Origin: an uncultured Pseudomonadota bacterium
Lineage (GTDB): Bacteria > SAR324 > JACQKK01
NCBI GenBank assembly: GCA_964583525.1
Contig: CAZOXD010000001.1
Location: 47,572 to 111,571 of the forward strand
Length of the DNA: 64,000 nucleotides
Direction of reading: 5' to 3'
Shown here: positions 12,549-56,542 of the stretch, piece by piece
How the letters are laid out: each line of letters opens with the position of its first letter
Numbering within the stretch: the first letter of the stretch is position 1
The notes under the pieces: model-generated
Database searches by the model: none
The model's input: only the letters and a program-made list of their open reading frames with translations
Told to the model about the DNA's origin: nothing
Translations under genes and position numbers: made by a program

Positions 12549-12704
12549 TCAGCAACTCGGTGACTTTCCCCCGTTTTTTCGGCTTCTTGGCGGCCGTGTA
12601 GGTGGTTTGCACCTCCTCGATCCGGAATCCGGAGAAGATCTCCCGCACTTCCGGGAGGATTCCGCGCAGATCCCTGAACTCCTCCCTTGCGCCCCCTCCC
12701 CTTC
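12549..12704 (-). pseudogene. Start-less C-terminal gene fragment (…EEFRDLRGILPEVREIFSGFRIEEVQTTYTAAKKPKKRGKVTELLITSEGI*) in the long non-coding stretch upstream of PFOR
   Basis: Manual translation gives a protein-like 50-aa reading frame bounded upstream by TAG with no plausible start. Could be a gene remnant at the prophage left junction. Not in the ORF track. Confidence 0.2.
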
Positions 12705-12932
12705 GAGCGTACTATCGAAATACCGCACACAACGCGGTGAAAGGAGGTGCGGCTTGACCAAGCTATTGATGCACCTCCCGTGAGTTGGAAGCCGTGAAAG
12801 TCGGCAATGACACCCGTAGCCTGAAAGCGTCAGCACCTCGTGCATTTTTGGTGGAGGGAGCCAAGCGTTTCCAGCCGCGCCCGGGAATTTGAAATAGGCG
12901 CCATCGCTGTACCACAACAGCGGTGAGAGGCT

Positions 12933-12966
12933 AAAAAAGCCCCGGTGAATAGCCGGGGCTTTTTCT
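12933..12966. terminator. Bidirectional rho-independent terminator (aaaaaa-gccccgg-tgaata-ccggggc-ttttt) downstream of the lipoprotein gene that closes the late arm
   Basis: Perfect 7-bp GC stem with an A-run upstream and a T-run downstream; read directly. Coordinates +/-2. Confidence 0.7.
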
Positions 12967-12985
12967 TGCGCTCCTCCCCTCCCTC

Positions 12986-13471
12986 CTATTCCACCAGCGT
13001 AAAGTAGACCACCGCGTCGCCGATCAGGGTCGCTCCATCGGCCTCGTAGAGCGATGCGGTCAGGGTGCGCGGGCCCAGGGGCATGTCACTGCATTGGCCT
13101 CCCACGGTGATCTCGAAGGCGTCCCCCGCCGCCACTGTGTAGGGCTGCACGGGCATGATCTCCCAGGTGTCCGCGCCGGCGCAGCCCGCATCGAATATCA
13201 TCCCGATCTGCACGTCCACGTCGAAGTCCAGGGGATTGCTGGCCTGGGTGGTGCCGTTGATGAGGATGCCCCGCGAGACATCCCCCAGCACGATCTCGAT
13301 GGTTTGCGTGGACATTCCTGCCAGGGCCGGGCAGTAGCCTCCCGCCCCCTCGTTGGCCACTTCCGCGCAGGTGATCCGCACCTCCCCGCCTCCGCTCCCT
13401 CCATCCCCTCCGCAGGCCGCCAGCAGCAGCGCCAGCAGGCCCGTCAGGGCCAGGATTCCCTGTTTTTTCAT
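12986..13471 (-). CDS. Lipoprotein (signal peptide + lipobox LLAAC), last gene of the prophage late arm
   Basis: MKKQGILALTGLLALLLAACGG...; AAGGAG RBS upstream; followed by a terminator. Confidence 0.7.
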   Translation of the reverse strand: MKKQGILALTGLLALLLAACGGDGGSGGGEVRITCAEVANEGAGGYCPALAGMSTQTIEIVLGDVSRGILINGTTQASNPLDFDVDVQIGMIFDAGCAGADTWEIMPVQPYTVAAGDAFEITVGGQCSDMPLGPRTLTASLYEADGATLIGDAVVYFTLVE

Positions 13472-13560
13472 GGCATCTCCTTGTATTTACGAGTTGGAGT
13501 GAATCTCCTTATTCTGCCATTCGTTGCCGGCTTGCGGATACCCTTCCTTGCGCCGTGTTC

Positions 13561-14448
13561 TCAGGCGCTGTTTTTCCAGCGCCCCTCCACGGTCATCACG
13601 CCGGCAGGCCCGGAGCGCGGCAGGGCCACGTTGTCCAGCCGCAACCAGTCCTCGTGCAGCAGCTCGTTGATGGATTCCCCCGCCTCGTGCAGTTCCAGCA
13701 GCAGCGCGGTCAGCGGCGCGACGGGATCCAGCAGCGCGACGGTCTTGCCGGTCAGGTCGTTTCCGATGAATGGGTGGGGAATCAGCCCCATGTCGGCCTG
13801 CTTGAGGGCTTGGGTGATCTCGATCTCGGCGTATTGCGGTTTCTCCAGCGCCTCCAGGTAAGCCGCGATCTCCCCGGGCGTGGCCGTCTCCGGGTCGGGC
13901 CGCGGAACGGACACAAGTTCAGTGCGGAAGGCCCGTCCCCCTTCACGACGCGTGGGCATTATTCTGGTGGGGCCGTTGAGCGCCCACGGCGGCTCCGGAG
14001 CGCAGTACACCGCCTCGATTTCGCCCAAGGAGTTCACCAGCGCGAAGATGAAAAGCGGAACCTCCCCGTCCCCAATATCGTAGGGCGGCGAGGCCTGGAT
14101 ATAGAGCTGCTGGGCGTAGACGGTGTTGGTAGTGGCATTGTAAAGGCCGATGATGGTGGCGTAGGAGGTCGTCAGGCTTCCAGCGCCCTGTCTTACGATT
14201 TGGGCGTCGGCAGCCCCCGCCACATTTTTTTTGACCTGCGGATAAAACCCGTACTCTCCACCAGGAAGGGTCAGGTTGGCAGAGCTACTTGTCGACACCT
14301 CCCCCGTGGCCGTGCTCAATCCAGCTTGCACCACGTTCGGCGCCCCGGAATCACCGTTGGCCAGGGCTGTCAGGTTATCGAAGAGCTGCGTCATCTTGAG
14401 GGATGTGAGCTTGCTCCCGAAGGCGAAACTGAGCGCTGTCCAGGCCAT
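13561..14448 (-). CDS. Phage distal tail / fibre-like hypothetical protein
   Basis: 295-aa ORF at the distal end of the tail module; identified by position only. Confidence 0.45.
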   Translation of the reverse strand: MAWTALSFAFGSKLTSLKMTQLFDNLTALANGDSGAPNVVQAGLSTATGEVSTSSSANLTLPGGEYGFYPQVKKNVAGAADAQIVRQGAGSLTTSYATIIGLYNATTNTVYAQQLYIQASPPYDIGDGEVPLFIFALVNSLGEIEAVYCAPEPPWALNGPTRIMPTRREGGRAFRTELVSVPRPDPETATPGEIAAYLEALEKPQYAEIEITQALKQADMGLIPHPFIGNDLTGKTVALLDPVAPLTALLLELHEAGESINELLHEDWLRLDNVALPRSGPAGVMTVEGRWKNSA

Positions 14449-14660
14449 TATTCACCTCCCTGGGCGTATTTCCGTTTTCTCCGATCGATAAAAGCCGCTG
14501 CCACCCCCAAATCCTCCGGACACAGGGTGGGGTTTTCCGCGCCATCCAGCGCGATCCCCCGCAGTTCGCCCCAGCCCGGGAATCCCGCGTCCGGCTGCTT
14601 TTCCTTTTCCTCTTCGCCGCAAACGTCGCAGCGGATCGTTCTCAATATCGGCATTCCCAC
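14448..14660 (-). CDS. Small Cys-containing hypothetical phage protein
   Basis: 70 aa with CDVCGEE...C; fills the gap between tail genes. Confidence 0.35.
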   Translation of the reverse strand: MGMPILRTIRCDVCGEEEKEKQPDAGFPGWGELRGIALDGAENPTLCPEDLGVAAAFIDRRKRKYAQGGE

Positions 14661-14745
14661 CTCCTGTTGGTTGTTTTGCAGTTCCTATCCGCGTTTATCG
14701 GCGTTCATCGGCGGTTCTAATGCTGTTGTTTTTCGCAGTTTCAAT

Positions 14746-15939
14746 TCACAGGAGCCGCCCCGGCCCGTCGTCCAGAATCCCGAACAAGTCGTCGTCCAGG
14801 ATGAAGTCCTGATAGATCTGCGAGCCGTCCACCTGGATCGCCGAGCGGCCCCGATCCAGGTCGATCTCGTAGCCCATCACCCGCCAGGTGAAGGATGAGT
14901 TCACCCCGAGGTACCCGTCCACGATGCGCACCGTCTCCCCGATCTGCCGGGCCAGCGGCGTCAGCGCGCCCTCGATGCGGTATTTCTCGTAGGGGCTTGA
15001 AGCGAAGTCCACCAGCCGCTCGGCCAGGTTCTGCGCGGTGGCGCTGCTCACGTACCAGATGCTCTCGTCGCGCTCCACCTCCTCGCGCAGCCCGAAGGAG
15101 TTCACGGATGCGATATTGACGCCGAAGGTGGCGATGGTGTGATAACGCGAATCCACGTCGTAGGCGGCATAGACCCACTGCTTGTTGACTATCGCCTGAT
15201 CGTCGATCTCCAGCGTGATCCCCATGGCTGTGTCGTCGTCGATCAGCGTCTCGTGGGAATCGGCCTCGGCGAAGCGGAAGAACCCCAGCTTGTTGTTCTC
15301 CACAAAGATGGCTGAATTGGTGACCCGCCCCAGCCGCCGCAGGGCGTCGTTGACCTTCACCCCGTCGAAGCGCGCCTTCATGAAGACGTTGTCGCCGCTC
15401 CACACCCCGGCCCATGTCTCGAAGCTGGGGTAATCGATGTCCTCGTTGGCCGCGTCGCGGGAATCCACCAGGCCCCCATAGCAGGTGACCAGCGTCCAGG
15501 CGATCTCGGAGGGCAGGTAATCGGTATCGGTGAAGGTCACCGGCTCGTCCGAGGTGCCCACCACGGCTTCGGCGAAGTCCTTGATCTTGTCCAGCATCTG
15601 CAGGTTGACCAGCCCGCGCGAGTATTTCACCTTGTCCACCCGCCCCGTGAAGACGTCGATCAGCTCGTCCCCGGAATCGGGGTGCGTGAACCCGATGCTT
15701 ACCTTGCACTCGCTGCGCAGGTGGGTCTTGTCGTCCTTGAAAAAATTGATCTCCTGATCCTCGTTGCTCAGGTCGATCGACAACGCCACGGGCCGGATAT
15801 CGTTCCAACTGCGGGCCAGCCGCGGCCAGCGCAGCACCCGGCCGGAATAATCCGAATCCCCGATGGTGAAGACCCGCTTGGGCGCAGAGGTCTTCTCCGC
15901 CGTCTGATCCACAAACCACGATGTCACCTGGTAGGCCAT
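14746..15939 (-). CDS. Phage tail protein (distal tail / tip candidate)
   Basis: 397-aa ORF downstream of tape measure and the 117-aa gene; positional assignment. Confidence 0.5.
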   Translation of the reverse strand: MAYQVTSWFVDQTAEKTSAPKRVFTIGDSDYSGRVLRWPRLARSWNDIRPVALSIDLSNEDQEINFFKDDKTHLRSECKVSIGFTHPDSGDELIDVFTGRVDKVKYSRGLVNLQMLDKIKDFAEAVVGTSDEPVTFTDTDYLPSEIAWTLVTCYGGLVDSRDAANEDIDYPSFETWAGVWSGDNVFMKARFDGVKVNDALRRLGRVTNSAIFVENNKLGFFRFAEADSHETLIDDDTAMGITLEIDDQAIVNKQWVYAAYDVDSRYHTIATFGVNIASVNSFGLREEVERDESIWYVSSATAQNLAERLVDFASSPYEKYRIEGALTPLARQIGETVRIVDGYLGVNSSFTWRVMGYEIDLDRGRSAIQVDGSQIYQDFILDDDLFGILDDGPGRLL

Positions 15940-15950
15940 ATTTTAATATC

Positions 15951-16016
15951 CGGGCGGGCTTGCCCGCCTCCTGCCCTCCCCTCTCCGTTTGCGGAGAGGG
16001 GCAGGGGGGTGAGGTT
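15951..16016. repeat. Conserved structured intergenic element, copy A (gggcttgccc hairpin + cccctctcc-gtttgc-ggagagggg hairpin + ggggggtgaggtt)
   Basis: Near-identical to a second copy at 21620-21683; both sit in ~75-nt intercistronic gaps of the late operon. Read directly. Confidence 0.6.
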
Positions 16017-16368
16017 AGTACGTCTCCAGCTCGATCACGCCCTCGTAGAGATCGTCATGGGGCTTGATGAAGCGCCCGAAAGGCAGCCGCGAATTGACGA
16101 TCTGCACCGAGTTCACCGTGGCGTCGGAGGTGTTCATGAAGAGCAGCTTGGTGTTGGAGTCCCACCAGGAATTGACCGCCCAGGCGTCCGCCGAATCGAT
16201 GAAGCGCGCCGTGAACTTCCAGCGCTCGTAGCCGCCCCAGCGGTAGCGGAACATCGCTCCGGAGCGCACCCGGTGGGCGTCCTCCACCTTCACGTTCTCC
16301 TGCAAGAAATCCCATTCGGGCTCGAAGCTCACCGAATTGGCGCTGTCCACAAAGAGATCCCAGGGCAT
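16015..16368 (-). CDS. Hypothetical phage tail-associated protein
   Basis: 117-aa ORF immediately downstream of tape measure. Confidence 0.45.
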   Translation of the reverse strand: MPWDLFVDSANSVSFEPEWDFLQENVKVEDAHRVRSGAMFRYRWGGYERWKFTARFIDSADAWAVNSWWDSNTKLLFMNTSDATVNSVQIVNSRLPFGRFIKPHDDLYEGVIELETY

Positions 16369-18352: not shown

Positions 18353-18933
18353 CTACTTCCTCTCCTTGGAGACCTGATCGGAGATCAGACCGAACATTTC
18401 CACCGTGAGATTTTCCTGCGCCGGATACCCGCCCGGCACGGGCCAGTCGTTGCGCGTCATGCTTCCGCCGTCTCCGGGGGAGTGGCAGTGCCGCCAGGCA
18501 TCCCACCAGACTGCGAAGGGGTGTCCTCCAACGACGATTCGCTCCTTTTGCCGGAGTCCGCCGCAGACTCTTGCGACAGCGTTGCGGACTTTTTTGCCGT
18601 TTCATCCCCCAACAACGATTCCTCGATCAGCAGGGCTCCCATTTTGTCGACGAGGTTGTTGAAGTAGGAATGCGTCAGCATCTGATCCAGCGTGGCTTCC
18701 CGGCCGCCGATGGTCAGCCCGTGGAATTCCGTCACATAATCAGGGAGGATCGCCGCGACTCCCTGCACCGAATCCAGGAACACCTGGTACACGCTTTGCC
18801 CCTCCTCCCTCACCAGTCCCATGGATGGGGCCAGCTTGATCTGATCGGCCCGCGTGAGGCGCTTCATGCGCCCGGTGACCACGTCCCCGTCGAACTCGAT
18901 CCGAAACTCGAAGTCCGGTGTGAATGCGCTCAT
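18353..18933 (-). CDS. Predicted -1 frameshift fusion product of the tail chaperone (GT-like), extended ~80 aa and stopping exactly at the tape-measure start
   Basis: -1 frame downstream of A_AAA_AAG reads VRNAVARVCGG...MTRNDWPVPGGYPAQENLTVEMFGLISDQVSKERK* and ends with TAG immediately before the ATG of the tape measure (manual translation). Confidence 0.45.
18457..18933 (-). CDS. Tail assembly chaperone (G-like) ending in a low-complexity tail that contains the slippery site
   Basis: 158 aa between the tail tube and tape measure; contains ...ETAKKSATLSQ... encoded by gca aaa aag. Confidence 0.55.
   Translation of the reverse strand: MSAFTPDFEFRIEFDGDVVTGRMKRLTRADQIKLAPSMGLVREEGQSVYQVFLDSVQGVAAILPDYVTEFHGLTIGGREATLDQMLTHSYFNNLVDKMGALLIEESLLGDETAKKSATLSQESAADSGKRSESSLEDTPSQSGGMPGGTATPPETAEA
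18589..18595 (-). other. Canonical -1 programmed ribosomal frameshift heptamer A_AAA_AAG in the tail chaperone gene
   Basis: Minus-strand gca aaa aag (plus strand ctttttt g) in the zero frame; position fixed from track coordinates (K114-K115 of the 158-aa ORF). Confidence 0.55.
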
Positions 18934-18979
18934 CGTTCCTCACTGTAATTGAGGGTGAAATATTGCACGGTCTGTTGCG

Positions 18980-19945
18980 TCAATACGCGGCCTGTGCGTT
19001 GCCCAGGATCACCTGCAGGCCCGTGGCCGAGTTGACCGAGTAGACCCCGGCCGCCGAGATCGAGACCTCCATTTCGCCCGGCCCGCCCGCCAGCGGCTTG
19101 AACTCTTTGTAGCGCAGCAGCGGCGCCTTGATGGTGCAGATCTCGTTGTAGCCGCTCTGCACCGCGGTGGAGCCCTCGAAGTGGAGGATCAATTCGCGCT
19201 CGGCCTGGGTGAGAAACTGCTGGTACTCGTCCTGATCGTCGAACTTGAGCGTCCCGTCGATGCTGATGGCCCGGGAGCCCGTGCGCTTGACCCGGCTGGG
19301 CACCTTGGAATTATTGAGGGTGTGCATCGCTTCGAGCTGTTCCTCGATCTTCACGGTGAACTGGGTGAACTGATCCACCGCCGCGCCGCCCAGTTGGGAA
19401 GATCCCTGATCCCACGTCCAGAGCTTGTTGGTGGGGTAGCTGGCCGCCGCCGCCACCACCTGGGAGTAGGCCCCGCCCACGATGCCCAGCTTGGCCTTGA
19501 GCAGCTCCCCCGCGCTGATGTTCAGCTCCAGCGAGGCCCCCACCAGATCCTGGTAGAGGAAGGCGCTGCCGGCGTCGTCCATGTATTTTTGCAGCGTGAA
19601 GGGGTTGCCCGCGGACAGCTTGTCGAAGTCGCTCGTCCTCGGCTCGAAGGTGTGGGTGTAGAGCGCGTCGGAGGTGACCGTGGCGGGCGGCCCCAGCACC
19701 GCTTTCAGCAAAACGCCCAGGGAAACCGGGTCGGCTTCCATCTCGATCTCCCCGGGGATGGAGGTGGGCCCCTCGTAATAGTCCCCCTCGTCGAAGATGC
19801 CCCGCATGCCCTGCGCCACCAGGGGCGGCTTCTCAATCCCCACGCCCTCGCTCAGGGCGGGCAGCCAGAAGTAGCTGTCCTGATTGAGCGTCCCGTAGCT
19901 GTTCTGGAAGCTCAGCCCCAGCCTGAAGTTCTGTCCGTAGCTCAT
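18980..19945 (-). CDS. Major tail (tube) protein
   Basis: 321-aa ORF immediately upstream of the chaperone and frameshift pair; no sheath gene present, so a siphovirus-type tail. Confidence 0.6.
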   Translation of the reverse strand: MSYGQNFRLGLSFQNSYGTLNQDSYFWLPALSEGVGIEKPPLVAQGMRGIFDEGDYYEGPTSIPGEIEMEADPVSLGVLLKAVLGPPATVTSDALYTHTFEPRTSDFDKLSAGNPFTLQKYMDDAGSAFLYQDLVGASLELNISAGELLKAKLGIVGGAYSQVVAAAASYPTNKLWTWDQGSSQLGGAAVDQFTQFTVKIEEQLEAMHTLNNSKVPSRVKRTGSRAISIDGTLKFDDQDEYQQFLTQAERELILHFEGSTAVQSGYNEICTIKAPLLRYKEFKPLAGGPGEMEVSISAAGVYSVNSATGLQVILGNAQAAY

Positions 19946-20151
19946 GTTGCCTCCTCGTTATCCGCCTGCGTTTTGGACTGCGCTTTGCCGGGCTTTTGCG
20001 CCAGGCGTTGCTCTATATAATTGTCGGCCAGTTCCACCGGCAGGGTTTTCTTTTCGCCGGGCCGGGCCATGCCATGGCCGGGAATGAACTTCTCCTCGCC
20101 CGTCCAGACGATTTCCCGCGTCATGCGGGGCGCTCCGATCTTTTCGCTCAT
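19942..20151 (-). CDS. Small hypothetical head-tail protein
   Basis: Internal start MSEKIGAPRMTREIVWTGEEKF... inside track ORF 19942..20466; 4-nt overlap with the neighbouring gene. Confidence 0.4.
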   Translation of the reverse strand: MSEKIGAPRMTREIVWTGEEKFIPGHGMARPGEKKTLPVELADNYIEQRLAQKPGKAQSKTQADNEEAT

Positions 20152-20600
20152 GCCGTCCTCTTCTCGCATTGAATGGAAATCATGGAGTACTGCACCCGCA
20201 GCGTCTCCGAATCGAACTCGTTGAAGCCGTCCTCCACGGTCAGCCCGGTCACCTGATCCACCGTGCCGCCCAGGGTGAAGTCGGTTTTGAGGGCGTTCAG
20301 CACGTCGGTCTCGTACTCGCAGAGCAGATCCTCGGCGTCCGCGCCGTCCTTGTAGCTGGCCGCCAGCACGATCACCCGGAAGACCAGCTCGCCCTTCAGG
20401 TTGCGCCCGCCGCTGGCGATGGTGGCCGGATCGTACTCGACGCCATCGCGGTAGACCCCGATCCACGGCGCGGCCTCGGGGTTCATCTCCGCGAAGTTGG
20501 CCCGCTCCACCTGGTAGGGCTTTCCGTCGTCCGTGGCCGGGGGAAGCTGATCCTCCAGCAGGGCCACGATGGCCTTGGTGATATCGGCCCGGTTGATCAT
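20148..20600 (-). CDS. Phage head-tail joining / tail completion hypothetical protein
   Basis: 150-aa ORF in the connector block; translational coupling overlaps on both sides. Confidence 0.45.
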   Translation of the reverse strand: MINRADITKAIVALLEDQLPPATDDGKPYQVERANFAEMNPEAAPWIGVYRDGVEYDPATIASGGRNLKGELVFRVIVLAASYKDGADAEDLLCEYETDVLNALKTDFTLGGTVDQVTGLTVEDGFNEFDSETLRVQYSMISIQCEKRTA

Positions 20601-21139
20601 ATGCGCTTCCCGATCGGTTTCATGGCGTGCAGCCCCTTGCGCAGGTTGCGCTCGAAAATTTTCCGGATATCGTTGCGCACCTCGCTGTGTTTGGGCAGCA
20701 GCCGCCGTTCGGGCAGATCGCCCAGCCCCTCATGGTGGGCCTCGGCGTAATCCAGGTCGGAGCCGATGCCCGCGTTATTGGCCGTGGCGAAGGGGACAAA
20801 GCTGAGGCGCAGCCGCCCGGTGTCCTGCAAAATCTTGAAGCGCGCGGCAGCCAGCGGCACGGCGCCGCCGAAGCCCCGCACGTTGCGGACGCCCCGGAAG
20901 TTCCCGCCGCGCAGGTTCTTGCGAATGCGCCCCAGCACCGTCGCCGGCGCCAGCGGCTCCCAGCCGCCCACGTTCCCGCCCTCGGAGCGGAAGTTCTTCT
21001 GCACCCACCTGTCCAGGAACACCGCCGCCTGCTTGTAGCTGGTGTTTACCCAACTGCGCTTGAGCCCCTTGAGCGCCTTGTCCGTGCGCGCTTTGAGCAC
21101 GGCGGCGGGGGGATCCATCTTCATTTCAATGCGGGGCAT
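20597..21139 (-). CDS. Phage virion morphogenesis (head-tail) family protein
   Basis: 180 aa, ...WEPLAPATVLGRIRKNLRGGNF...AARFKILQDTGRLRLSFVP..., resembles the virion morphogenesis/gpS-like family. Confidence 0.45.
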   Translation of the reverse strand: MPRIEMKMDPPAAVLKARTDKALKGLKRSWVNTSYKQAAVFLDRWVQKNFRSEGGNVGGWEPLAPATVLGRIRKNLRGGNFRGVRNVRGFGGAVPLAAARFKILQDTGRLRLSFVPFATANNAGIGSDLDYAEAHHEGLGDLPERRLLPKHSEVRNDIRKIFERNLRKGLHAMKPIGKRI

Positions 21140-21147
21140 GGCTGCTC

Positions 21148-21606: not shown

Positions 21607-21619
21607 GGCTCAATTTCCG

Positions 21620-25511: not shown

Positions 25512-25575
25512 TTCACTTGCTCCGGTGATGGAAGCGGGCTCCGGTAATATGAGCGGGCCCGCTCCCGGGTTAGGG

Positions 25576-26939: not shown

Positions 26940-26941
26940 GA

Positions 26942-31043: not shown

Positions 31044-31044
31044 G

Positions 31045-40923: not shown

Positions 40924-40926
40924 ACC

Positions 40927-41457: not shown

Positions 41458-41460
41458 CCG

Positions 41461-49246: not shown

Positions 49247-49654
49247 ATGGATGCCGGCGAAATTTTGTTGCTGCTGCGGCATTGCAAATTGGCGTTCGAC
49301 CGAGGCTGGGAGGATCTCTGCGCCAACGGGCTGTCGATCCGTGAATCGCACACGCTCCTGCTCGTTGAGAAGGATCCCGGAATGCGGGTGGGACAAATCC
49401 GGGATGCGATCGACGTCCACAAGAACCACGCAACGCGTATCGTCAACACCCTGGAGGCGTCGGGGCTGGTGCGGAGGGAAAGAGAAAACTCGCGACATTG
49501 CCGGGTTCTTATCACTCCTGCCGGGCGGAGCAAGGTCAAGACGATCCGGGAAAACCTGAACCGTTTGGCCTCGTATTACTGGGGCGATCTGCCGGCCGCG
49601 GATCTGGAAGCGATGGAGCGGGTCGTCAACCATCTGCTGGAGCGCAGCCGATGA
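49247..49654 (+). CDS. MarR-family transcriptional regulator
   Basis: 135 aa with winged-helix region (ESHTLLLVEKDPGMRVGQIRDAIDVHKNHATRIVNTLEASGLV). Confidence 0.6.
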   Translation: MDAGEILLLLRHCKLAFDRGWEDLCANGLSIRESHTLLLVEKDPGMRVGQIRDAIDVHKNHATRIVNTLEASGLVRRERENSRHCRVLITPAGRSKVKTIRENLNRLASYYWGDLPAADLEAMERVVNHLLERSR

Positions 49655-50148
49655 AGCCCGGAGATCCCATCGGAAAGCAGAAGATCAAGCTGCTGCACGT
49701 GCTGTTCGCCAAGTTCGACCCGGACGCCGTGGAGGCCATCCGGGACGGCATCGCCGAGGTTACCGGGGACACCTCCACCCTTTCCCTCAACGAGGCGCAG
49801 GCCTGGGAAGTCATCAACGGACTTTGCCGCGAGTTGCGCCAGAACAATCCCGCGCCGATCTGCGTGGTCTGGTGCGAGGGCTACACCATGGGGCGGCTGC
49901 CCAGGGGCGGCATCGATTGGGAGACGCGGATTCCCAGCCAGGCGCAGATCTGGGGGATTCACAAGCTGATGCGCGGCGCCGGAGTGCTGGACGGCCAGGC
50001 CTTCCTGGCGGCGCGGTTCCCGAAGATCGTCCCGGACGGAGTGATCCGCACCGCGCGGGAGGCGTGGCAGGTCTCCAAAAGCCTGCGGGCGATGGGAGCC
50101 AACCGAACTGAACCGCGCCAGGGAGGCGCGGCCGCAATGGGAGCCTGA
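49651..50148 (+). CDS. GemA-like (Mu gp16/DUF1018) regulatory protein
   Basis: Internal start MKPGDPIGKQKIKLLHVLFAKF...; family placement approximate. Confidence 0.45.
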   Translation: MKPGDPIGKQKIKLLHVLFAKFDPDAVEAIRDGIAEVTGDTSTLSLNEAQAWEVINGLCRELRQNNPAPICVVWCEGYTMGRLPRGGIDWETRIPSQAQIWGIHKLMRGAGVLDGQAFLAARFPKIVPDGVIRTAREAWQVSKSLRAMGANRTEPRQGGAAAMGA

Positions 50149-50456
50149 TGGAAAATAAGCGCAAGGAAGCGCGGCGAACCGTGACCGTGCAGGTGGCCGC
50201 GGACATGCTTCACGCATCGGAGGATACCGTGCGGCGGCTGGTCAAGGCCGATCAGATCGAGGCCTACCGGCGCGGCAAGCGGATCATCCTGCTGTATTGG
50301 GATTCGGTGGAAGCGTTCATCGAATCCGAGAAGTCCATCGGCCCTTACGATCACGAGCTGCGCGGCGACAAGGCCGAGGCCCGGCGCCGCGAAATCCGCA
50401 CCCGGCGCGCCGAGCTGGAAGCGCGGCAACTGGGACTTTTGGGGGACGAGGCATGA
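50148..50456 (+). CDS. Excisionase-type HTH DNA-binding protein (at the position of Mu Mor)
   Basis: HTH TVQVAADMLHASEDTVRRLVKADQIEAYRRGKRI. Confidence 0.45.
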   Translation: MENKRKEARRTVTVQVAADMLHASEDTVRRLVKADQIEAYRRGKRIILLYWDSVEAFIESEKSIGPYDHELRGDKAEARRREIRTRRAELEARQLGLLGDEA

Positions 50457-50833
50457 CGGAAGCTGCGTCCATCGAGATTTGCACGAGATGCCCGCTGCCA
50501 GAATGCGACGAGGAAAGCGCGGTATGCCCCTTCTACGGCAACGACGGGGTTGCACAACATCCTAATGAACGGAAGCGGAAGCAAAACAGCGAGTACTTGC
50601 GCAGGCGTCGGGCCAATGACCCGGCCTTCCGGGAACGGAGGCGGAAGCAAAACAGCGAGTACGTGCGCAGGCGCTACGCTGAAGACCTGGCCTTCCGGGA
50701 ACGGAGGCGGAAGCAAAACAGCGAGTACATGCGCAGGCGCTACGCTGAAGACATGGCTTTCCGGGAACGTCATCGAGAGTACTGCCGGGATTACCGGCGC
50801 AGGCGCCGGGCCGCCGCGAAGGAGAAGGCATGA
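50453..50833 (+). CDS. Small protein with N-terminal Cys4 zinc finger and three 22-aa basic tandem repeats (RRRKQNSEYxRRRYAEDxAFRE)
   Basis: Manual start at ATG 50453; the repeats are exact at the DNA level with 66-bp period. Confidence 0.5.
   Translation: MTEAASIEICTRCPLPECDEESAVCPFYGNDGVAQHPNERKRKQNSEYLRRRRANDPAFRERRRKQNSEYVRRRYAEDLAFRERRRKQNSEYMRRRYAEDMAFRERHREYCRDYRRRRRAAAKEKA
50571..50768. repeat. 3 x 66-bp tandem repeat (coding)
   Basis: ggaRgcggaagcaaaacagcgagtac... repeated at 50571, 50637, 50703; coordinates +/-2. Confidence 0.6.
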
Positions 50834-51150
50834 ACGGCTTCTGCCACACCTGCGGCTACACGCTGCGCAAGGTGGCCAACGGCTCGCTGGAGTGGTGCAC
50901 GTTTTGCGGAAAGGTCGCCCCGGCGTTCCCCTTCGACCCCGACGAGGAAGAGGTGAAGGAAGTGCGCAGGGAATGGGAAAAACAGGGCGGAAAGATCGTC
51001 CGCCTCCCCTACGACGGGGACTGGATTCCGGATGTGGCGGTGGAAGCCACCGCCGATACGATCTTCGCCACCCTGCTGGAAGCGAGGCAGGTGGTTTATC
51101 TGTATCAGGGCCGGAAGAAGCTGAACCTGAAAACCAGGAGGAAGCCATGA
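50830..51150 (+). CDS. Zinc-ribbon small protein
   Basis: MNGFCHTCGY...WCTFCGK; 106 aa. Confidence 0.5.
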   Translation: MNGFCHTCGYTLRKVANGSLEWCTFCGKVAPAFPFDPDEEEVKEVRREWEKQGGKIVRLPYDGDWIPDVAVEATADTIFATLLEARQVVYLYQGRKKLNLKTRRKP

Positions 51151-51323
51151 ACTGGGAAGGAATCGCGCTGGTGATGGGCTGCCTGGCCGCACTGGCGGCA
51201 TGGAAAGCCTGGAAGGCCGGCAAGGAACTGCGGGCCGAGCGGGAGCGGATGGCCCGCAACCTTCAACCAACAATCGACCGCCAGGGCACCGTGCCCTGGG
51301 GCAACGACGAGGTGGCGAACTAA
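51147..51323 (+). CDS. Small membrane protein (58 aa)
   Basis: MNWEGIALVMGCLAALAAWKAWKAG...; AGGAGG RBS. Confidence 0.4.
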   Translation: MNWEGIALVMGCLAALAAWKAWKAGKELRAERERMARNLQPTIDRQGTVPWGNDEVAN

Positions 51324-51532
51324 TTGGTGAGCCAGTCCCCGAAAATCGGGCTTATTGCTGCAAAAGCCGAAACCTCCTGCTCCGCGTTTGGAACATGGAG
51401 CGGGGTGTAGGTCTCGTGGCGCGTGTGCGGCTGCTCCGCAATCACCTCATGCCTCTGGTGTTCGCCCGAAGAAGCGGCAGCCAATAGCGCGAGAACTACT
51501 ATTGTAGTGATGGTTTTTTTGTCGAGAAACAT
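51320..51532 (-). CDS. Putative moron: small secreted/membrane protein in an AT-rich islet, opposite strand
   Basis: 70 aa with N-terminal hydrophobic segment TITTIVVLALLAAASSG; the islet 51330-51650 is markedly AT-rich relative to its surroundings. Confidence 0.35.
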   Translation of the reverse strand: MFLDKKTITTIVVLALLAAASSGEHQRHEVIAEQPHTRHETYTPLHVPNAEQEVSAFAAISPIFGDWLTN

Positions 51533-51652: not shown

Positions 51653-52660
51653 ATGAACGCCATGGAAGGCTTGAAGCAAAATCCATCGCGGCTGCTGGCC
51701 GAGCGGGCAGCGGAGAAAATGCAGGAGCTGGGTCTCTCCTACAACGAGGCCGCTGAATATGTGCTGATGACCAACCCGGGGCTAGCGAAGCGCTACCAAG
51801 AGTTCACGCTTGAAGGGCCACCGCCACCGCCTGATTGTCCCATCGATCACCATCTTTCCCGGGCGGCCAACAACTACCGGCCGGCCGGATTCATCGCGGA
51901 CAGGATTTTCCCCACGGCCCCTTGCAGGGAAGAAGACGGGGAGATGTACCACGCCATGGCTGACGTGACGCTGGAAGGAAGGGGCAGCGCCAATCCGTGT
52001 TTCATTCAGCAATTCGAGGAAGGGCGGACACACAGGACGCTGGACTCGCTCTACCTGGATTGGGAACAGCGGATGGGGAGGATGTTGCTCGCTCCCGAGA
52101 GCAGGATTCCCGTGCGGACGCCGTTCTATCCCTGGAGCATTTATGCCGAGGATACGCCCCTCGATGATATTTACGAGGCGATGGCCGAAGTGGAAAACGC
52201 CACCGGAAAGGAAGCCAACCGGATCCTGTTTTCCGGCACGGCCTGGCGGCACTTCCGGCGCAATCAGAAGGTGATCGACAAAGCCACCAATCCTCACGTG
52301 AGCGGGGGCGGTTTGTATCCATCGACCCACCAGATAGAAGCCCTGCTGGGGCTGCAGGTGCTGGTGGGGAACGCTTGGTACAACGCCGCCGAGGAAGCCA
52401 TGCCTTTGAACCTGACTCAAGTCTGGGGCGCGGGAGTGCTGGTGTACCGGGCCGCGGAACGGAGCAACATTCAGGAACCGTCCTTGGGCTGGAATCTGCG
52501 CTGGACGCCGCCCGGAATGAGCGGGCCGTGGGTGGTGAAGCGTATGCCTTACGACACGCGGCGGCATCTTTCGGAGATCCTTGTAGCCTGCCGGGGCGGG
52601 GAGATGCTGAGCAAGCCGGCGCTGGGCTGCCTGATTCCCAACGTAGTGGAGGCGCCATGA
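51653..52660 (+). CDS. Second major-capsid-like paralog (same family as 25576..26538) with a ~50-aa N-terminal extension, located in the early arm
   Basis: Shares motifs with the late-arm capsid gene (ANNYRPAGFIADRIFP, CFIQQFEEGR, WRHFRRNQKVIDKATNPHVSGGGLYPS, MPYDTRRH). Confidence 0.6.
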   Translation: MNAMEGLKQNPSRLLAERAAEKMQELGLSYNEAAEYVLMTNPGLAKRYQEFTLEGPPPPPDCPIDHHLSRAANNYRPAGFIADRIFPTAPCREEDGEMYHAMADVTLEGRGSANPCFIQQFEEGRTHRTLDSLYLDWEQRMGRMLLAPESRIPVRTPFYPWSIYAEDTPLDDIYEAMAEVENATGKEANRILFSGTAWRHFRRNQKVIDKATNPHVSGGGLYPSTHQIEALLGLQVLVGNAWYNAAEEAMPLNLTQVWGAGVLVYRAAERSNIQEPSLGWNLRWTPPGMSGPWVVKRMPYDTRRHLSEILVACRGGEMLSKPALGCLIPNVVEAP

Positions 52661-53034
52661 AAACCCTATCGATTCAACAGCCGTGGGCGTGGGCGATCCT
52701 CCATGCGGGCAAGGACGTGGAAAACCGCAGATGGAGAACCACCTACCGCGGGCCGCTGCTGATTCACGCGGGGAAGTCGTTTGACCTGGACGGATTTGGT
52801 GAATTGGTGCATTTGCGCCCCGATTCACACATCCCTCCCTCCAGCCACTTCCCCCGGAGCGGCATCGTGGGGCGGGTAGAGTTGGTGGACATCGTTCACG
52901 TGGACACACTGCCCAGCAACCCCTGGGCGTTCGGGCCGTGGTGCTGGCTGTTGAAGCATCCCCAGCCACTGCCCCTCAAGCTCTGCAAGGGGCAGTTGGT
53001 GTTGTTCGAGATCGACTACGAGGCCCTGCCATGA
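52657..53034 (+). CDS. ASCH-domain protein
   Basis: MKTLSIQQPWAWAILHAGKDVENRRW... typical ASCH N-terminus; ATGA overlap with the previous gene. Confidence 0.6.
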   Translation: MKTLSIQQPWAWAILHAGKDVENRRWRTTYRGPLLIHAGKSFDLDGFGELVHLRPDSHIPPSSHFPRSGIVGRVELVDIVHVDTLPSNPWAFGPWCWLLKHPQPLPLKLCKGQLVLFEIDYEALP

Positions 53035-53882
53035 ACCCCATCCCCGACAACGTGTATTTCCACTGCGTGGCGCTGAGCACGCCGAAGATGGCGGTGTCCC
53101 TCTGCCGCGCCAACCGGGCCAAGCCGGAGGGGTTGAAGGTGAAGGGAGCCTACATCGAAGGCGGGGTTCCAAAGCCCATGGCCTGCCGGATTTGCACCCT
53201 CTTCGGCGACCTGGAAGCGGGGCATATCCCCACCATGACTCTGGATGAAGCGAAGCGGGACGTGAAGGCGCAGCCTCCGGAGCCGGTGCAGGCAGCGCCC
53301 CCGGTGGAGCGCCCGCTGGTCAAATCACCGGAAGGCCGGGTGCATGAAGCCGATCTTGAACCCAAACAACCACCCAAGGAGCAGCCCATGGAAGGCGAAA
53401 AGAAGATCAGCAAGGCCCAGCAGATCCGGGACTGGTTGGGCGAACACGGCCCGGCGGCCTGCGCCGAGGTAGCCGACGCGCTGGGAATGGAGAAGAAAAA
53501 CACGGCGGCCCAACTATCGGGGATGATTGCCCATGGATTGGTGGAGAAATCCATCGGAGAGGACAACATCAATCTCTACTCCCTGGCAGACGGAAACCAG
53601 GCTCCACCGGCGCCGGAGAAGGAGGAACCCGAACAGAGCAACGTCCTGCCGCTGCGGCCTCTGGACGCGCCGGCGCCGGAAAAGCCGGGGCAACCGGTGA
53701 AGCAGATCCACCGCTCCCTGCCGGAAGAGTTGGGGCTGAGCCTGGAATGCGGGCTGCGTGATTCCCTGGACGACCTGCGCAGACATCTGGCCTGGGAGAA
53801 CGACGGGTTGGGACTGGCGTTGCTGAAAAAACACGAGATCAGCGGCGAAGTCCTGAAACTATTCCTGGAGAGGCGGCGATGA
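53031..53882 (+). CDS. Hypothetical protein with central winged-helix-like region (position of Mu late activator C)
   Basis: 283 aa; ...ISKAQQIRDWLGEHGPAACAEVADALGMEKKNTAAQLSGMIAHGLVEK... Confidence 0.4.
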   Translation: MNPIPDNVYFHCVALSTPKMAVSLCRANRAKPEGLKVKGAYIEGGVPKPMACRICTLFGDLEAGHIPTMTLDEAKRDVKAQPPEPVQAAPPVERPLVKSPEGRVHEADLEPKQPPKEQPMEGEKKISKAQQIRDWLGEHGPAACAEVADALGMEKKNTAAQLSGMIAHGLVEKSIGEDNINLYSLADGNQAPPAPEKEEPEQSNVLPLRPLDAPAPEKPGQPVKQIHRSLPEELGLSLECGLRDSLDDLRRHLAWENDGLGLALLKKHEISGEVLKLFLERRR

Positions 53883-54394
53883 AGATGCCCGAATTTCCCC
53901 CCTGGCAATGGCTGGCCTGGTTTCTCGCGGGGCTGGGCATTGCGCTGGCGGGAGCGGCGTTTCAAGCCCGGGCGCACACCCCGCAGCCGGTGAAACCGGC
54001 GCAGGTACGCGAGGCGGCGTGGGAGTTCGAGGTGCCGCTGGAGATGCTGCTGGCCGTGTGGGAGGAGGAATGCCAGTACCGCCCCACCTGCCCGCGCGGC
54101 CCGGCCGGAGAGTGGGGGCCGTTCCAGATCATGCGCATCGCCGCGGTAGATGCGGGCTGCGCCTGGGAATGGCGCGGCGGGCCGGGCAACGCCCGCTGCG
54201 CCGCCAAAATCCTGGCCCGGGCCTGGCAGCGCTGCGCCTGGCGGCGGCGGGGGGCATTCTCTCGCTACAATCTGCCCGCGGCCCGCTGCCGCGCCACGGC
54301 CTACGCCTGGCGCGTCGAGCAGCGCATGATAGCCCTGCAACGCCAGGCCGCGCACAACCGGGAAATCGAACTGCTGGAAGGGAGGGGAGGGTGA
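53879..54394 (+). CDS. SLT-domain lytic transglycosylase (Mu-lys-like lysozyme) with N-terminal membrane anchor
   Basis: ...EFEVPLEMLLAVWEEECQYRP...GEWGPFQIMRIA... SLT-like catalytic region. Confidence 0.5.
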   Translation: MKMPEFPPWQWLAWFLAGLGIALAGAAFQARAHTPQPVKPAQVREAAWEFEVPLEMLLAVWEEECQYRPTCPRGPAGEWGPFQIMRIAAVDAGCAWEWRGGPGNARCAAKILARAWQRCAWRRRGAFSRYNLPAARCRATAYAWRVEQRMIALQRQAAHNREIELLEGRGG

Positions 54395-54702
54395 TGGGCG
54401 AATTTAACGATGTCGTGAAGGCGGTCACGGACTGGGGAGCAAAGACCTTCGGGGATCACCGGAGGTCAAAGGTTCCTGGCATTCTGAAGCACCTGGAGGA
54501 GGAAATTGAGGAACTGCTCGAGGATCCTGACAGCGCTGAAGAGCAGGCGGACTGCTTGATGCTGATATTCCAGTTGTCCCGCGCCACAGGAGTTGATCTG
54601 GAGAAGGCGGTGCTCGATAAACTGGAAATCAACAAACGCCGGAAATGGGCGCGTATTCCGGGCGTCGGATACAGTAAGCACGTTGAGGAAGGGAGGGGAT
54701 GA
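54394..54702 (+). CDS. MazG-like nucleoside triphosphate pyrophosphohydrolase
   Basis: ~102 aa; ...FGDHRRSKVPGILKHLEEEIEELLEDPDSAEEQADCLMLIFQL... MazG EExxE-type helix pair. Confidence 0.5.
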   Translation: MGEFNDVVKAVTDWGAKTFGDHRRSKVPGILKHLEEEIEELLEDPDSAEEQADCLMLIFQLSRATGVDLEKAVLDKLEINKRRKWARIPGVGYSKHVEEGRG

Positions 54703-55232
54703 TGGAACAACAATCTTTATTGCCGGATGATCCCCCAGAAATAACGGGCCGAGCTTATTTCAGCGATTGCGGCCAATACCGCTATATGCTGACTCGGGAT
54801 TGGGCTCATGAAAAAGGAACAGCGGTTTTTATCATGCTGAATCCGAGCACCGCCGATGAAAAAGAGGACGATCCCACCATTCGGCGGTGCATTGGATTCG
54901 CAAAGCGGTGGGGGTACGGGCGGATCGAAGTTGTAAATCTATTCGCCTGGAGGGCCACAAATCCCGCTGATTTAAAGAAAGCACTCGACCCGATTGGAGT
55001 GAAAAACGATGCTCATATATTCGATGCCTGCGACTTTACCGGGCCTGTGATTGGCGGAATCGTGATAGCGGCTTGGGGGGCGCATGGCGGCTGGAATAAT
55101 CGGGATAACCAGGTTTTGGGAATGCTGGCGCAGCATGACTTCCCTGTTCATTATTTAACCCTAACCAAAGACGGGAAGCCGCGGCACCCGCTCTATCTCA
55201 AAAACGATCTCACCCCAATCCCATGGATCTGA
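54699..55232 (+). CDS. DUF1643-family protein
   Basis: ...YRYMLTRDW......VFIMLNPSTADEKEDDPTIRRCIGFAKRWGYGRIEVVNLFAWRATNP... family-typical motifs; lower GC. Confidence 0.55.
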   Translation: MMEQQSLLPDDPPEITGRAYFSDCGQYRYMLTRDWAHEKGTAVFIMLNPSTADEKEDDPTIRRCIGFAKRWGYGRIEVVNLFAWRATNPADLKKALDPIGVKNDAHIFDACDFTGPVIGGIVIAAWGAHGGWNNRDNQVLGMLAQHDFPVHYLTLTKDGKPRHPLYLKNDLTPIPWI

Positions 55233-55233
55233 C

Positions 55234-56127
55234 GTGACCGAGAACACCTCCATCGGTTGGACGGATCACACCTTCAACGCTTGGTTGGGCTGCACCCGCT
55301 TTGGCCCCGGCTGCCATAATTGCTACGCGGAGAAATGGGCCAAGCGCTCGGGCTTGGTCACCTGGGGTAAAGGCCAGCCGCGCCGCCTGACCACGGATGC
55401 CAACTGGGCCATGCCGCACCGGTGGAATGCGCGGGCGCAGGACAACGGCCGGCCGGAGTGGGTCTTCTGCGGGAGCCTGATGGATTGGGCGGATCGGGAA
55501 GTCCCGGACGCCTGGCGCACACGCCTCTTCGCGCTGATCCGGGGGACGCCCTGGCTGCGCTGGCAACTGCTCAGCAAGCGCGTGGAGGAGATCGCGCGTT
55601 GCCTGCCGGAGGACTGGGGACGCGGCTACCCGAACGTGGCCCTGGGCATGACGGCTGTCAATAACGACGAGTTGGATAGGGATGCCTGGCGGTTCCTGAA
55701 GATACCGGTGCTCTGGCACTTCCTCTCCTACGAGCCGGGCTTGGAGGGGGTGGATCTGCGGCGCTGGCTGCTTTGTTTTTGCTGCCTGGACAGGTTGAAA
55801 TATCGAGGGCCTGATTGGGTCTGCACCAAGTGCGGGCACACCGATCAGAACGTGGGCTGCGGTATATTCGACCAAGTTATCATCGGCGGGGAGAGCGGAG
55901 GCGGGCGTAAGGCGCGGGCCTTCGATCCGGACTGGGCGCGGCGGGCAGTGGCCGATTGCCGGGATGCGGGCGTGAAGGTGTACGTCAAGCAGATGGGCTC
56001 GGTGTGGGCGCGGGAAAACAAGGCGGAGAACCGCAAGGGCGAAGACCCCGCCGAATGGCCGGATGACCTTCGCGTTCAGGAAAGACTGGAGGACGCGAGC
56101 CGAACTGCCTTAACAGCGGGCTCGTAG
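55234..56127 (+). CDS. Phage Gp37/Gp68-family protein (DUF5131)
   Basis: N-terminal IGWTDHTFNAWLGCTRFGPGCHNCYAEKWAKR matches the family signature; GTG start. Confidence 0.65.
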   Translation: MTENTSIGWTDHTFNAWLGCTRFGPGCHNCYAEKWAKRSGLVTWGKGQPRRLTTDANWAMPHRWNARAQDNGRPEWVFCGSLMDWADREVPDAWRTRLFALIRGTPWLRWQLLSKRVEEIARCLPEDWGRGYPNVALGMTAVNNDELDRDAWRFLKIPVLWHFLSYEPGLEGVDLRRWLLCFCCLDRLKYRGPDWVCTKCGHTDQNVGCGIFDQVIIGGESGGGRKARAFDPDWARRAVADCRDAGVKVYVKQMGSVWARENKAENRKGEDPAEWPDDLRVQERLEDASRTALTAGS

Positions 56128-56542
56128 TACTCATTCCCCCACTCATCCACCTACCACCATCTTTTTCTGATAGGCCATAAGCCAGTCACAGGAATAGCAG
56201 TTTGGCATGTTTGAAGGGTTTCCCCGGAAATTCCTGACAGGGAGCACAGGGGGGGGATCGAACAGAAACCCATAGAAAATCGACCCCATGATGCCGGCCC
56301 AATCCAGCCGGGATTGTGGCGTGATTGACACGCCCCGGCCGGGAACTGACCTGAGAAAACCAGCCCGGAGACCCTCCCAGGGAACCCAATTGCAAATCTA
56401 AATCTTTGGAATCAATGATGATTATGATCGGAATCACATTGGGGTCAACCTTTTGCATTCAGGGAGGAAGTATCGTGCTTTTGCAGCGATGGAAGGTTAT
56501 TTCGAATTGGAAATTCGTGAATTTGTCAACATTGAGGTGACC

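Follow-up and report, generated by a model that had tools for sequence, protein, structure and literature searches.

Here, we analyze a 64,000-nucleotide stretch (the window) of contig CAZOXD010000001.1, from an uncultivated bacterium of the SAR324 lineage, and the phage genome that it carries. The window has a G+C content of ~64%, and the same sequence is present in three independent assemblies, all from one sample. Two host genes encoding pyruvate:ferredoxin oxidoreductase, whose nearest homologs are 72% identical, lie on one side of the locus, and a host gene encoding a Pal/OmpA-like lipoprotein lies on the other. The intergenic site between them is occupied by a block of phage-like genes spanning ~12.4-56.3 kb. 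Specifically, late genes occupy the minus strand, early genes occupy the plus strand, and the two arms diverge from a short region at ~39.5 kb. It is highly probable that positions 12458-56239 constitute one complete temperate phage that is transposable, was probably acquired recently, is organized in the manner of B3 and BcepMu, and has a siphovirus-type tail.

Genes were called via third-codon-position G+C (GC3) and cross-checked with the database gene calls for the same metagenomic scaffold. Gene families were assigned by Pfam and PHROG profile matches, and relatives were identified by BLASTP; the search for Rfam families in the window yielded no match. An initial annotation had proposed a single transposable prophage with two divergent arms and no integrase at 12600-56400. 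The empty site, the target duplication, and the terminal inverted repeats described below bear out that proposal and shift its coordinates to 12458-56239.

Boundaries of the insertion and the empty site

The ends of the element emerge from comparison with an unoccupied locus, a comparison that the initial annotation had suggested. Joint Genome Institute (JGI) contig L015, which was reached through a cluster mate of the Pal-like protein, joins the flanks directly, with the Pal gene next to the oxidoreductase genes. Its identity to the window is 98.5% over the left flank, which it matches as far as 12457, and 98.3% over the right flank, where the match resumes at 56240. It lacks the intervening 43,782 bp as a single clean difference with one pair of ends. 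The L015 junction reads ...GAATGAACC-GGGA-GCACAGG.... GGGA is present once at the empty site and twice in the window, indicating a 4-bp target-site duplication. Elsewhere in the host flank, a stretch of ~244 bp (window 7291-7535, L015 254-498) cannot be aligned although the remainder is 98% identical. This stretch has the appearance of a small segment that was replaced or has diverged strongly.

The Logan assembly (k=31) places the boundaries at the same positions. Specifically, phage contig L009 extends to 56269, and the first position of host contig L013 is 56240. This 30-nt (k-1) overlap puts a branch of the assembly graph exactly at 56239|56240. On the other side, phage contig L011 ends at 12428, i.e., at the boundary minus 30 nt, which predicts a left boundary at 12457|12458. 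The Logan contigs of sample SRR8799001 thus break with exact 30-nt overlaps at both prophage boundaries (12428-12457 and 56240-56269). Such breaks imply that the lysogen shares this sample with another allele, which is probably the empty site.

At the boundaries found by these independent routes, the two termini form an inverted repeat in exact register, with 25 of 40 positions matching and no gaps. Among 539,121 pairs of 40-mers from the junction regions, 8 score as high as or higher than the terminal repeat, which is the best non-self match of either terminus window-wide. Both ends carry AATTTCCG at position 8 and CATGCCAAA at position 31, and no internal copy of either terminal 40-mer rises above background. 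The left terminus begins TATACC, and thus with TA, while the right terminus, read inward, begins TGTCAG, and thus constitutes a CA end. A second family member, L005 (contig NODE_287 of ERZ16028321, 43,431 bp), could be read at its right end only, and searches with the tail-tube and distal-tail proteins listed no L005 protein. The L005 right end aligns in register (...TTTCTAACA) and finishes ...TCTAACA, which reads TGTTAG inward.

Several expectations of the initial annotation concerned these ends. Its two candidate intervals both contain the true ends. Of the TG...CA terminal repeats that it anticipated, the inverted repeat and the right-hand CA exist, while the left-hand TG is TA. Similarly, the anticipated 5-bp target duplication proved to be 4 bp. 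A brute-force scan of both junctions and of 50.4-51.7 kb for exact 5-bp duplications with inverted repeats starting with TG returned nothing convincing because the duplication is 4 bp and the left end is TA. The tgaaag motifs (12738-12830) suggested as left-end sites lie ~280-370 bp inside the left end. They have no right-end counterpart, there are no further subterminal copies of the two repeat blocks, and on present evidence we therefore rejected them as transposase-binding sites. The presumed start-less gene fragment nearby has a GC3 of 0.48-0.59, compared to 0.8-0.9 in phage genes, and no Pfam match. Finally, a right end at ~50.5-51.6 kb was considered given that Mor is encoded last in B3 and BcepMu. 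That placement is rejected by the empty site and is also contradicted by the inverted repeat at 56239 and by the recurrence in L006/L099 of genes from the accessory end (DUF5131 and pyrophosphohydrolase).

Genes of the two arms

The early arm encodes the transposition module. TnpA, 551 amino acids (aa), matches the PHROG transposase family phrog_310, and residues D134, D226, and E262 are invariant in an eight-member family alignment. In BLASTP comparisons, TnpA resembles TnpA of phage phiSHP3 (23% identity, 7e-16), gp9 of BcepMu (23%, 2e-7), and TnpA of B3 (25%, 2e-8), and it shows no similarity to MuA (best E 3.7). Thus, of the MuA-like DDE transposase that was initially annotated, the DDE designation stands, with an invariant triad, and the sequence kinship to MuA does not. 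An AlphaFold (AF2) model of moderate confidence possesses an RNase-H-like core followed by a beta-rich domain. The best structural matches of this model are ShCAST TnsB (1.6e-13), IstA (~1e-12), and the MuA transpososome structure 4fcy (1.5e-8). Judged by its sequence, TnpA groups with the rve-type transposases of B3 and BcepMu as a distant relative.

Downstream of tnpA lie genes for two MuB-like AAA+ ATPases, TnpB1 and TnpB2, the latter with a C-terminal helix-turn-helix (HTH) domain. Both ATPases belong to Pfam family AAA_22 and to phrog_296 (DNA transposition protein), in keeping with their initial annotation. The Walker motifs are intact in both proteins (in TnpB1, Walker A is GFGVGKT and Walker B is VIDEAH). 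TnpB1 and TnpB2 are 36% identical to each other, and each matches TnpB of BcepMu, phiSHP3, and B3 at 27-30% identity. TnpB2 is also 27% identical to MuB (BLASTP, 1e-8), which is its best solved-structure match (8xvb), albeit a weak one (E 0.021).

The ATPase pair is a feature of the family. In L005 and L006, which derive from other samples and hosts (L006 from a Candidatus Glassbacteria metagenome-assembled genome), the late arm, repressor, and early arm follow in the same order as in the window. L099, a 14-kb contig, covers the early arm only, again in the same gene order. All four family members examined encode two ATPases. By BLASTP, each window ATPase is closer to its own counterpart in L005 and L006 than to its paralog. 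In L099, gene order and Pfam identify the same pair, with AAA_22 genes of like size and position. By comparison, the full B3, BcepMu, and phiSHP3 records each contain a single such ATPase gene, as do the first 5.5 kb of Mu. Sequences of the transposition module are rare, with 10 protein clusters among 5.8 billion. Searches for transposase relatives retrieved none from IMG/VR, using single-protein and alignment queries, none from GTDB representative genomes, and three short fragments only from JGI metagenomes.

In the immunity region, the repressor gene that was initially annotated is confirmed by its HTH_3 and phrog_2328 matches. It is read leftward, and the first early gene is read rightward, from a 127-bp divergent region. 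This region may have a regulatory function, by analogy to the equivalent arrangement of B3 ORF17/ORF18 and BcepMu gp16/gp17. The first early gene encodes an 80-aa HTH protein that lies at the position of Ner. The name Ner, initially given to it, fits its position and is not supported by sequence similarity to Mu Ner (BLASTP E=3). The 80-aa HTH protein and a 407-aa family-specific protein are conserved in L005 and L006. A gene encoding a homolog of FliW lies between them and is absent from the relatives of the window phage. FliW is a flagellin-binding partner and an antagonist of CsrA. The early-arm FliW may interfere with host motility or with CsrA regulation.

Toward the end of the early arm, the order MarR-HTH_17 is kept in L005 and L006, and L099 possesses MarR and, at the HTH_17 position, a 99-aa gene with no recorded Pfam hit. 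The accessory end recurs in relatives: L006 has DUF5131, L005 has DUF488, and L099 has both of these together with the pyrophosphohydrolase. A second capsid-like gene, which is absent from L005, L006, and L099, lies near a dip in G+C at 51-52 kb. Its product is 40% identical to the major capsid protein of the same phage over 309 aa, and its N-terminal ~52 residues are similar to the protease/scaffold C-terminus (39% over 44 aa). Given this scaffold-like N-terminus, the gene looks like a fusion of a scaffold tail to a capsid protein. It could be the remnant of another phage. We speculate that it might alternatively specify a capsid-assembly decoy for superinfection exclusion.

The late arm provides a full set of lysis, packaging, head, and tail genes. 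All genes of the element have coding-type GC3 and appear intact. As initially described, late genes run leftward and early genes run rightward, in an order unlike that of Mu. The sheathless, siphovirus-type tail that had been proposed is likewise upheld. Specifically, the arm encodes a tail tube (PF18906, Phage_tube_2), a tape measure, a neck protein, and a terminator, and no sheath or baseplate family was found in the tail gene set, from which the siphovirus-type reading follows. Of the distal tail proteins, the 397-aa protein has 61 homologs, all within phage tail modules, and the terminal lipoprotein has a lipobox signal peptide.

The head genes include the homologs of Mu portal, F, and I that the initial annotation listed. 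The Mu I homolog, the protease/scaffold protein, matches the head maturation protease family phrog_976 and has no Pfam match. The major capsid protein matches phrog_1005 and is 27% identical to the B3 capsid protein (E 1e-15). The portal and Mu F-like domains reside in one open reading frame (ORF), while B3, BcepMu, and matching Bacillus phages encode them in two genes. Two further observations concern repeats. An 81-nt repeat (copies 73% identical) comprising two G+C-rich hairpins occurs at 15936-16016 and 21603-21683, directly upstream of two late-gene start codons, and has no other copies in the window. Tandem repeats in a late gene (31045-32433) and an early gene (50567-50806) are both coding and have a common period of 66 nt.

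The structural module is far more common than the transposition module to which it is joined. More than 200 homologs share 50-60% identity with the tail tube, and the same structural module families recur in numerous phages, including those of Bacillus. L101, the closest of the long contigs, has the same structural module in a 21-kb region where the tail is followed by lysis genes and, beyond these, by a VapE-like primase gene. Because of this arrangement, we consider the L101 phage to be of a non-transposable type. The portal, Mu F, and protease genes had been counted initially as evidence for transposability. Given that the same module exists in L101, Mu-type head genes provide no such evidence, and genome annotators should not read them as a sign of transposability. 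The shared module includes a glycosyltransferase-methyltransferase fusion gene that lies between the capsid and neck genes; its 1011-aa ortholog occupies the same position in L101 (1035-4070). Conservation of position in a non-transposable relative suggests that this protein has a virion-tied role, possibly in glycosylation of structural proteins, and is not a random accessory insertion.

Table 1. Coordinates of the insertion, its genes, the flanking host genes, and the ATPase genes of relatives (window positions unless a contig is named; HTH, helix-turn-helix; SAM, S-adenosylmethionine)
Feature	Coordinates	Strand	Evidence or remark
Two pyruvate:ferredoxin oxidoreductase genes	8179-9876, 9913-12345	-	Left host flank
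Left target-site duplication copy, GGGA	12454-12457		Single in L015, on both sides of the insert in the window
Left terminal inverted repeat, TATACCAAATTTCCGAAATCCTCCCTCAAGCATGCCAAAG	12458-12497	+	Repeat match, end of L015 homology, Logan contig end
Left-end non-coding region with terminator-like hairpin (~12940-12965)	12498-12985		No coding-type GC3, no Pfam/Rfam match
Four distal tail genes and terminal lipoprotein (161, 295, 70, 397, 117 aa)	12986-16368	-	GC3 0.79-0.89; no PHROG names
Tape measure protein, 660 aa	16370-18352	-	phrog_9483, E 3e-57
Chaperone-position gene, tail tube (18980-19945), small ORF, tail terminator (20148-20600), Neck1/Mu G-like (20597-21139), head-tail gene	18457-21606	-	PF18906 (tail tube, 4.7e-25), phrog_290, phrog_4204, phrog_26
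GT4 glycosyltransferase-SAM methyltransferase-GT2 glycosyltransferase fusion, 1027 aa	21684-24767	-	Pfam; inside the structural module
158-aa protein, major capsid (25576-26538), small scaffold-like (26538-26939), protease/scaffold (26942-28270)	25035-28270	-	phrog_1005 (capsid, 1.6e-60), phrog_976 (protease/scaffold, 1.3e-43), phrog_673 (1.6e-10)
Portal (Mu gp29 type) fused to Mu F-like head morphogenesis domain, 795 aa	28390-30777	-	PF06074 1.2e-53; PF04233 5.9e-12
Six-gene block, terminase to portal, ~3 kb	30738-33866	-	phrog_644 matches 32799-33281
462-aa protein of 22-aa repeats (PLGTFxLxGQxPxV... units)	31045-32433	-	Repeat family D1
Large terminase (33880-35427), 75-aa ORF, DUF1804 protein (35640-36110; Mu gp27/small-terminase position)	33880-36110	-	phrog_38 2.7e-51; PF08822 1.6e-7
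Small genes, CHAP-domain endolysin (37210-37785), 61-aa membrane protein (holin position)	36222-37974	-	PF05257 8.3e-8; database gene calls
phrog_1244 protein, superinfection immunity protein (38660-38986), XRE-type repressor (38996-39439)	38197-39439	-	PF14373 1.7e-15; PF01381 (HTH_3) 3.9e-7; phrog_2328 1.1e-11
Divergent region, 127 bp, putatively regulatory	39440-39566		Between leftward repressor gene and rightward first early gene
Proximal early genes: 80-aa HTH, 343-aa membrane protein, FliW, CII-like, 407-aa, two small ORFs	39567-44186	+	PF02623, PF06892, phrog_101
80-aa HTH protein (Ner/Cro position)	39567-39809	+	Ner-like by position only
FliW homolog	40927-41457	+	PF02623 3.3e-33
CII-like activator	41739-42335	+	PF06892, phrog_101 among the proximal early genes
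407-aa family-specific protein	42332-43555	+	Conserved in relatives
DDE transposase TnpA, 551 aa	44183-45838	+	phrog_310, E 8.7e-21
MuB-like AAA+ ATPase 1, TnpB1, 312 aa	46808-47746	+	PF13401 3.3e-14; phrog_296 2e-16
MuB-like AAA+ ATPase 2, TnpB2, 341 aa	48220-49245	+	PF13401 1.5e-13, HTH_31; phrog_296 2.9e-26
Distal early genes: MarR, 165-aa GemA-position, 102-aa HTH_17, basic repeat protein, zinc-finger, small ORFs	49247-51532	+	Pfam; phrog_286 weak
MarR	49247-49654	+	Pfam
Basic protein with 66-nt tandem repeats (RRRKQNSEYxRRRYAEDxAFRE units)	50567-50806	+	Early arm
Accessory end: second capsid-like gene, ASCH, 283-aa winged-HTH-like, 171-aa, dATP/dGTP pyrophosphohydrolase, DUF1643, DUF5131	51653-56127	+	Pfam; phrog_1005
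Second capsid-like gene	51653-52660	+	phrog_1005 1.3e-21
DUF5131	55234-56127	+	Last early-arm gene
Right terminal inverted repeat, inward TGTCAGGAATTTCCGGGGAAACCCTTCAAACATGCCAAAC, terminus ...CTGACA-3'	56200-56239	-	Contig overlap, L015 homology
Right target-site duplication copy, GGGA	56240-56243		L015 comparison
OmpA/Pal-like lipoprotein gene	56489-57250	+	Right host flank
L005 ATPases	12593-13507, 14576-15571		AAA_22 pair after transposase
L006 ATPases	11868-12794, 12974-14086		AAA_22 pair after transposase
L099 ATPases	5785-6717, 6991-7977		AAA_22 pair after transposase

Kinship with B3, BcepMu, and Mu

A divergent two-arm layout of this kind is termed the B3 organization (defined in PMC8705779), and phage phiSHP3 is described as a B3-like transposable siphovirus (PMC8228603). 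In their annotated genomes, B3 (Pseudomonas, Beetrevirus), BcepMu, and phiSHP3 (Stenotrophomonas) display the same arrangement as the window phage, nearly gene for gene. The layout and the tail type, for which the initial annotation saw limited precedent, are therefore precedented: all three phages share the layout, and B3 and phiSHP3 are siphoviruses. As in the window phage, the early arms of B3 and phiSHP3 specify, in order, an HTH protein, a CII-like activator, a protein of ~300-400 aa, TnpA, TnpB, and accessory genes. Their late arms specify lysis proteins, a gp27-like small terminase, the large terminase, a Mu-type portal, F, a protease/scaffold, a small scaffold, the capsid, and a sheathless tail. 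TnpA, TnpB, capsid, and portal are homologous at 23-27% identity. Like the window phage, B3 and phiSHP3 lack an integrase and have A/T-rich motifs of the AAATTTC type close to the termini.

There are also differences. The window phage has two TnpB paralogs rather than one, a TA left terminus, and no recognizable GemA/Mor. Its portal and F are in one ORF, a 3-kb gene block separates terminase from portal, and a glycosyltransferase-methyltransferase gene is present in its structural module. It is 43.8 kb in length compared to 37.6-38.4 kb for B3 and phiSHP3, and identity is too low for alignment at the nucleotide level. Its target duplication is 4 bp, whereas that of B3 is 6 bp (PMC8705779; duplication and terminal dinucleotide values for the B3 type are given there and in PMC2628397).

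BcepMu (Burkholderia, Bcepmuvirus) likewise has two divergent arms, an rve/Tn552-type transposase followed by an ExeA-like AAA_22 ATPase, an early-arm pyrophosphatase, and a Mu-type head module. It differs from the window phage in its P2-like contractile tail, its single ATPase, its TG termini, and the presence of GemA and Mor at the end of the arm. Measured against what characterizes the B3/BcepMu type, the window phage possesses the divergent arms, a transposition-type insertion (the empty site and GGGA duplication, with no integrase), an rve/Tn552-type TnpA, with identity of merely 23-25%, and an AAA_22 (ExeA-like) TnpB directly downstream of TnpA, here as two genes. It has neither the 6-bp duplication nor the TG-CA dinucleotides.

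Resemblance to Mu is more limited. The lifestyle predicted here is that of Mu (Escherichia): it involves a DDE transposase with an AAA+ activator of target DNA, a short duplication, and no integrase. Both head modules include the Mu-type portal, F, and gp27 families (PF06074, PF04233, and PF08822), although these are not diagnostic. By contrast, BLASTP finds no similarity to MuA, Ner, or c. Pfam identifies none of the MuA-family domains (DNA-binding, DDE_2 core, and Mu-transpos_C) in TnpA, for which the 4fcy fold match alone is significant. In the first 5.5 kb of Mu, all genes but c run in one direction, and the whole Mu genome is unidirectional apart from c, whereas two arms diverge here. Mu also has a contractile tail, a 5-bp duplication, and TG...CA termini; of these, the window phage has only the CA of the right end. 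Finally, the best structural matches of the TnpA model are TnsB/IstA/Tn552-type transposases of Tn7-like elements and IS21, which likewise have an adjacent AAA+ ATPase as partner. Those are non-viral transposons, and identity in the structural alignments is 12-16%, whereas the window module would drive a complete phage genome.

Thus, the element is a divergent member of the known B3/BcepMu kind, with a few real variant features. The 4-bp duplication, the TA left terminus (with its Leptospira precedent discussed below), and the two ATPases depart from described phages. The fourth departure is the union of a rare transposition module with a structural module that is common and is shared with a non-transposable phage.

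The ends, duplication, empty site, and gene set are read directly from the DNA. The dynamic steps proposed here are modeled on Mu, B3, and BcepMu. In this scheme, the transposase would bind the terminal repeats, synapse the ends, and attach their 3'-OH (CA) termini to the target at positions staggered by 4 bp. One ATPase, or both, would load on the target DNA and deliver it, acting as MuB-like activators. During lytic growth, the genome would be copied through repeated replicative transposition, and headful packaging would presumably proceed from the integrated copies. The leftward XRE repressor and the rightward small HTH protein could constitute the lysis-lysogeny switch, acting from the 127-bp divergent region.

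Alternative explanations and significance

A number of points weigh against a functional transposable phage of this type. At 43.8 kb, the element exceeds the 36-39 kb typical of transposable phages (PMC8705779). The Pfam rve match of TnpA, 25.7 bits, is under the 32.6-bit cut-off, and its structural model has a predicted local distance difference test score (pLDDT) of only 65. Only one insertion is documented, so mobility and the 4-bp stagger have each not been seen a second time, and replicative transposition and headful packaging with host ends are deduced rather than observed. The terminal inverted repeat is weak, and a search for a second or third binding site in the subterminal regions found none. 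GemA and Mor have no Pfam or PHROG match in the element and no BLASTP similarity to those of B3, BcepMu, or phiSHP3. A comparable arm-end position is held by the 165-aa protein and the 102-aa HTH_17 protein, which are conserved in relatives, and Mor/C is likewise missing from Leptospira transposable prophages (PMC8705779).

The left terminus is the most direct concern, since TA there could signal a disabled end. The TG-CA dinucleotides are described as conserved at Mu and B3-like ends (PMC8705779), and both the right end, TGTCAG, and the L005 right end, TGTTAG, start with TG where the left end reads TATACC. The prophage could thus be cryptic, with its left TG mutated to TA and that end no longer processable by the transposase. 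We regard this loss of mobility as unlikely. The genes appear intact, with coding-type GC3, and the empty allele differs by merely ~1.5%. The other allele apparently coexists in the same sample. Low divergence together with coexistence points to a recent insertion. Moreover, TA ends have a precedent, so far only in some Leptospira prophages, and those are described as candidate active elements (PMC8705779).

An additional question concerns the size of the duplication. Known transposable phages generate 5 bp (Mu) or 6 bp (B3) (PMC8705779). A true duplication of 5-7 bp, as in Mu, B3, and Tn552, would place the termini 1-3 bp from the positions given here and would require a point mutation at one junction since insertion. 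The empty site, ACCGGGA, and the right junction, ACAGGGA, indeed agree at 6 of 7 positions. We nevertheless find this improbable. Only the 4-bp reading puts AATTTCCG and CATGCCAAA in the same register at both ends, and it yields a CA right terminus like that of L005, which a longer duplication would remove. Furthermore, flank divergence is ~1.6% per site, making a single-nucleotide polymorphism there less likely than a chance AC match. A full-text search returned no paper linking transposable phages to a 4-bp duplication, which is absence of evidence only.

The two arms could, in principle, be independent or nested elements, such as a late region with a separate transposon, or a phage whose rightmost 5 kb are the remnant of another phage. 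The second, divergent capsid-like gene in the early arm, the local drop in G+C beside it, and the pairing of the structural module with a non-transposition replication module in L101 are compatible with such an origin. The evidence nonetheless makes this very improbable. The empty site differs by one insertion with a single pair of ends, the outcome opposite to the separate ends that the initial annotation had named as contrary evidence. No terminal 40-mer recurs internally above background. L005 and L006 retain the late arm, repressor, and early arm together, L099 retains the early arm, and accessory-end genes recur among them. A mosaic ancestry of the modules, as distinct from two present-day elements, is likely. 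Finally, an ordinary integrase-type temperate prophage at an att site has next to no chance of being correct: the tyrosine/serine recombinase, att direct repeats, and tRNA junction that would mark one were looked for, and the scanned ORFs of the phage block include no integrase or recombinase family, the window has no tRNA gene, and there is no att site, the flanks having just 4 bp in common and the ends being inverted rather than direct repeats.

With the reading of one complete transposable phage preferred, its place among such phages can be considered. A 4-bp target stagger is known from IS21 and some retroviral integrases. We tentatively suggest, as a possibility we rate somewhat below even, that the window phage together with L005, L006, and L099 forms a distinct, undescribed lineage of B3-type transposable siphophages, with machinery mechanistically unlike that of any transposable phage characterized so far: two anciently duplicated MuB-like ATPases, one with a C-terminal HTH, and a 4-bp stagger.

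Transposable phages serve as models for DDE transposition and as genetic tools, and the characterized examples come nearly all from Proteobacteria. The element described here adds a fully delimited example from an uncultivated host, with exact ends, inverted repeats, target duplication, and empty site. It reveals that the B3-type architecture holds at protein identity as low as 23-25%. From the mechanistic side, the Mu/B3 paradigm comprises one activator and a 5/6-bp stagger; two conserved MuB-like ATPases and a duplication of 4 bp depart from it in concrete ways that can be tested.

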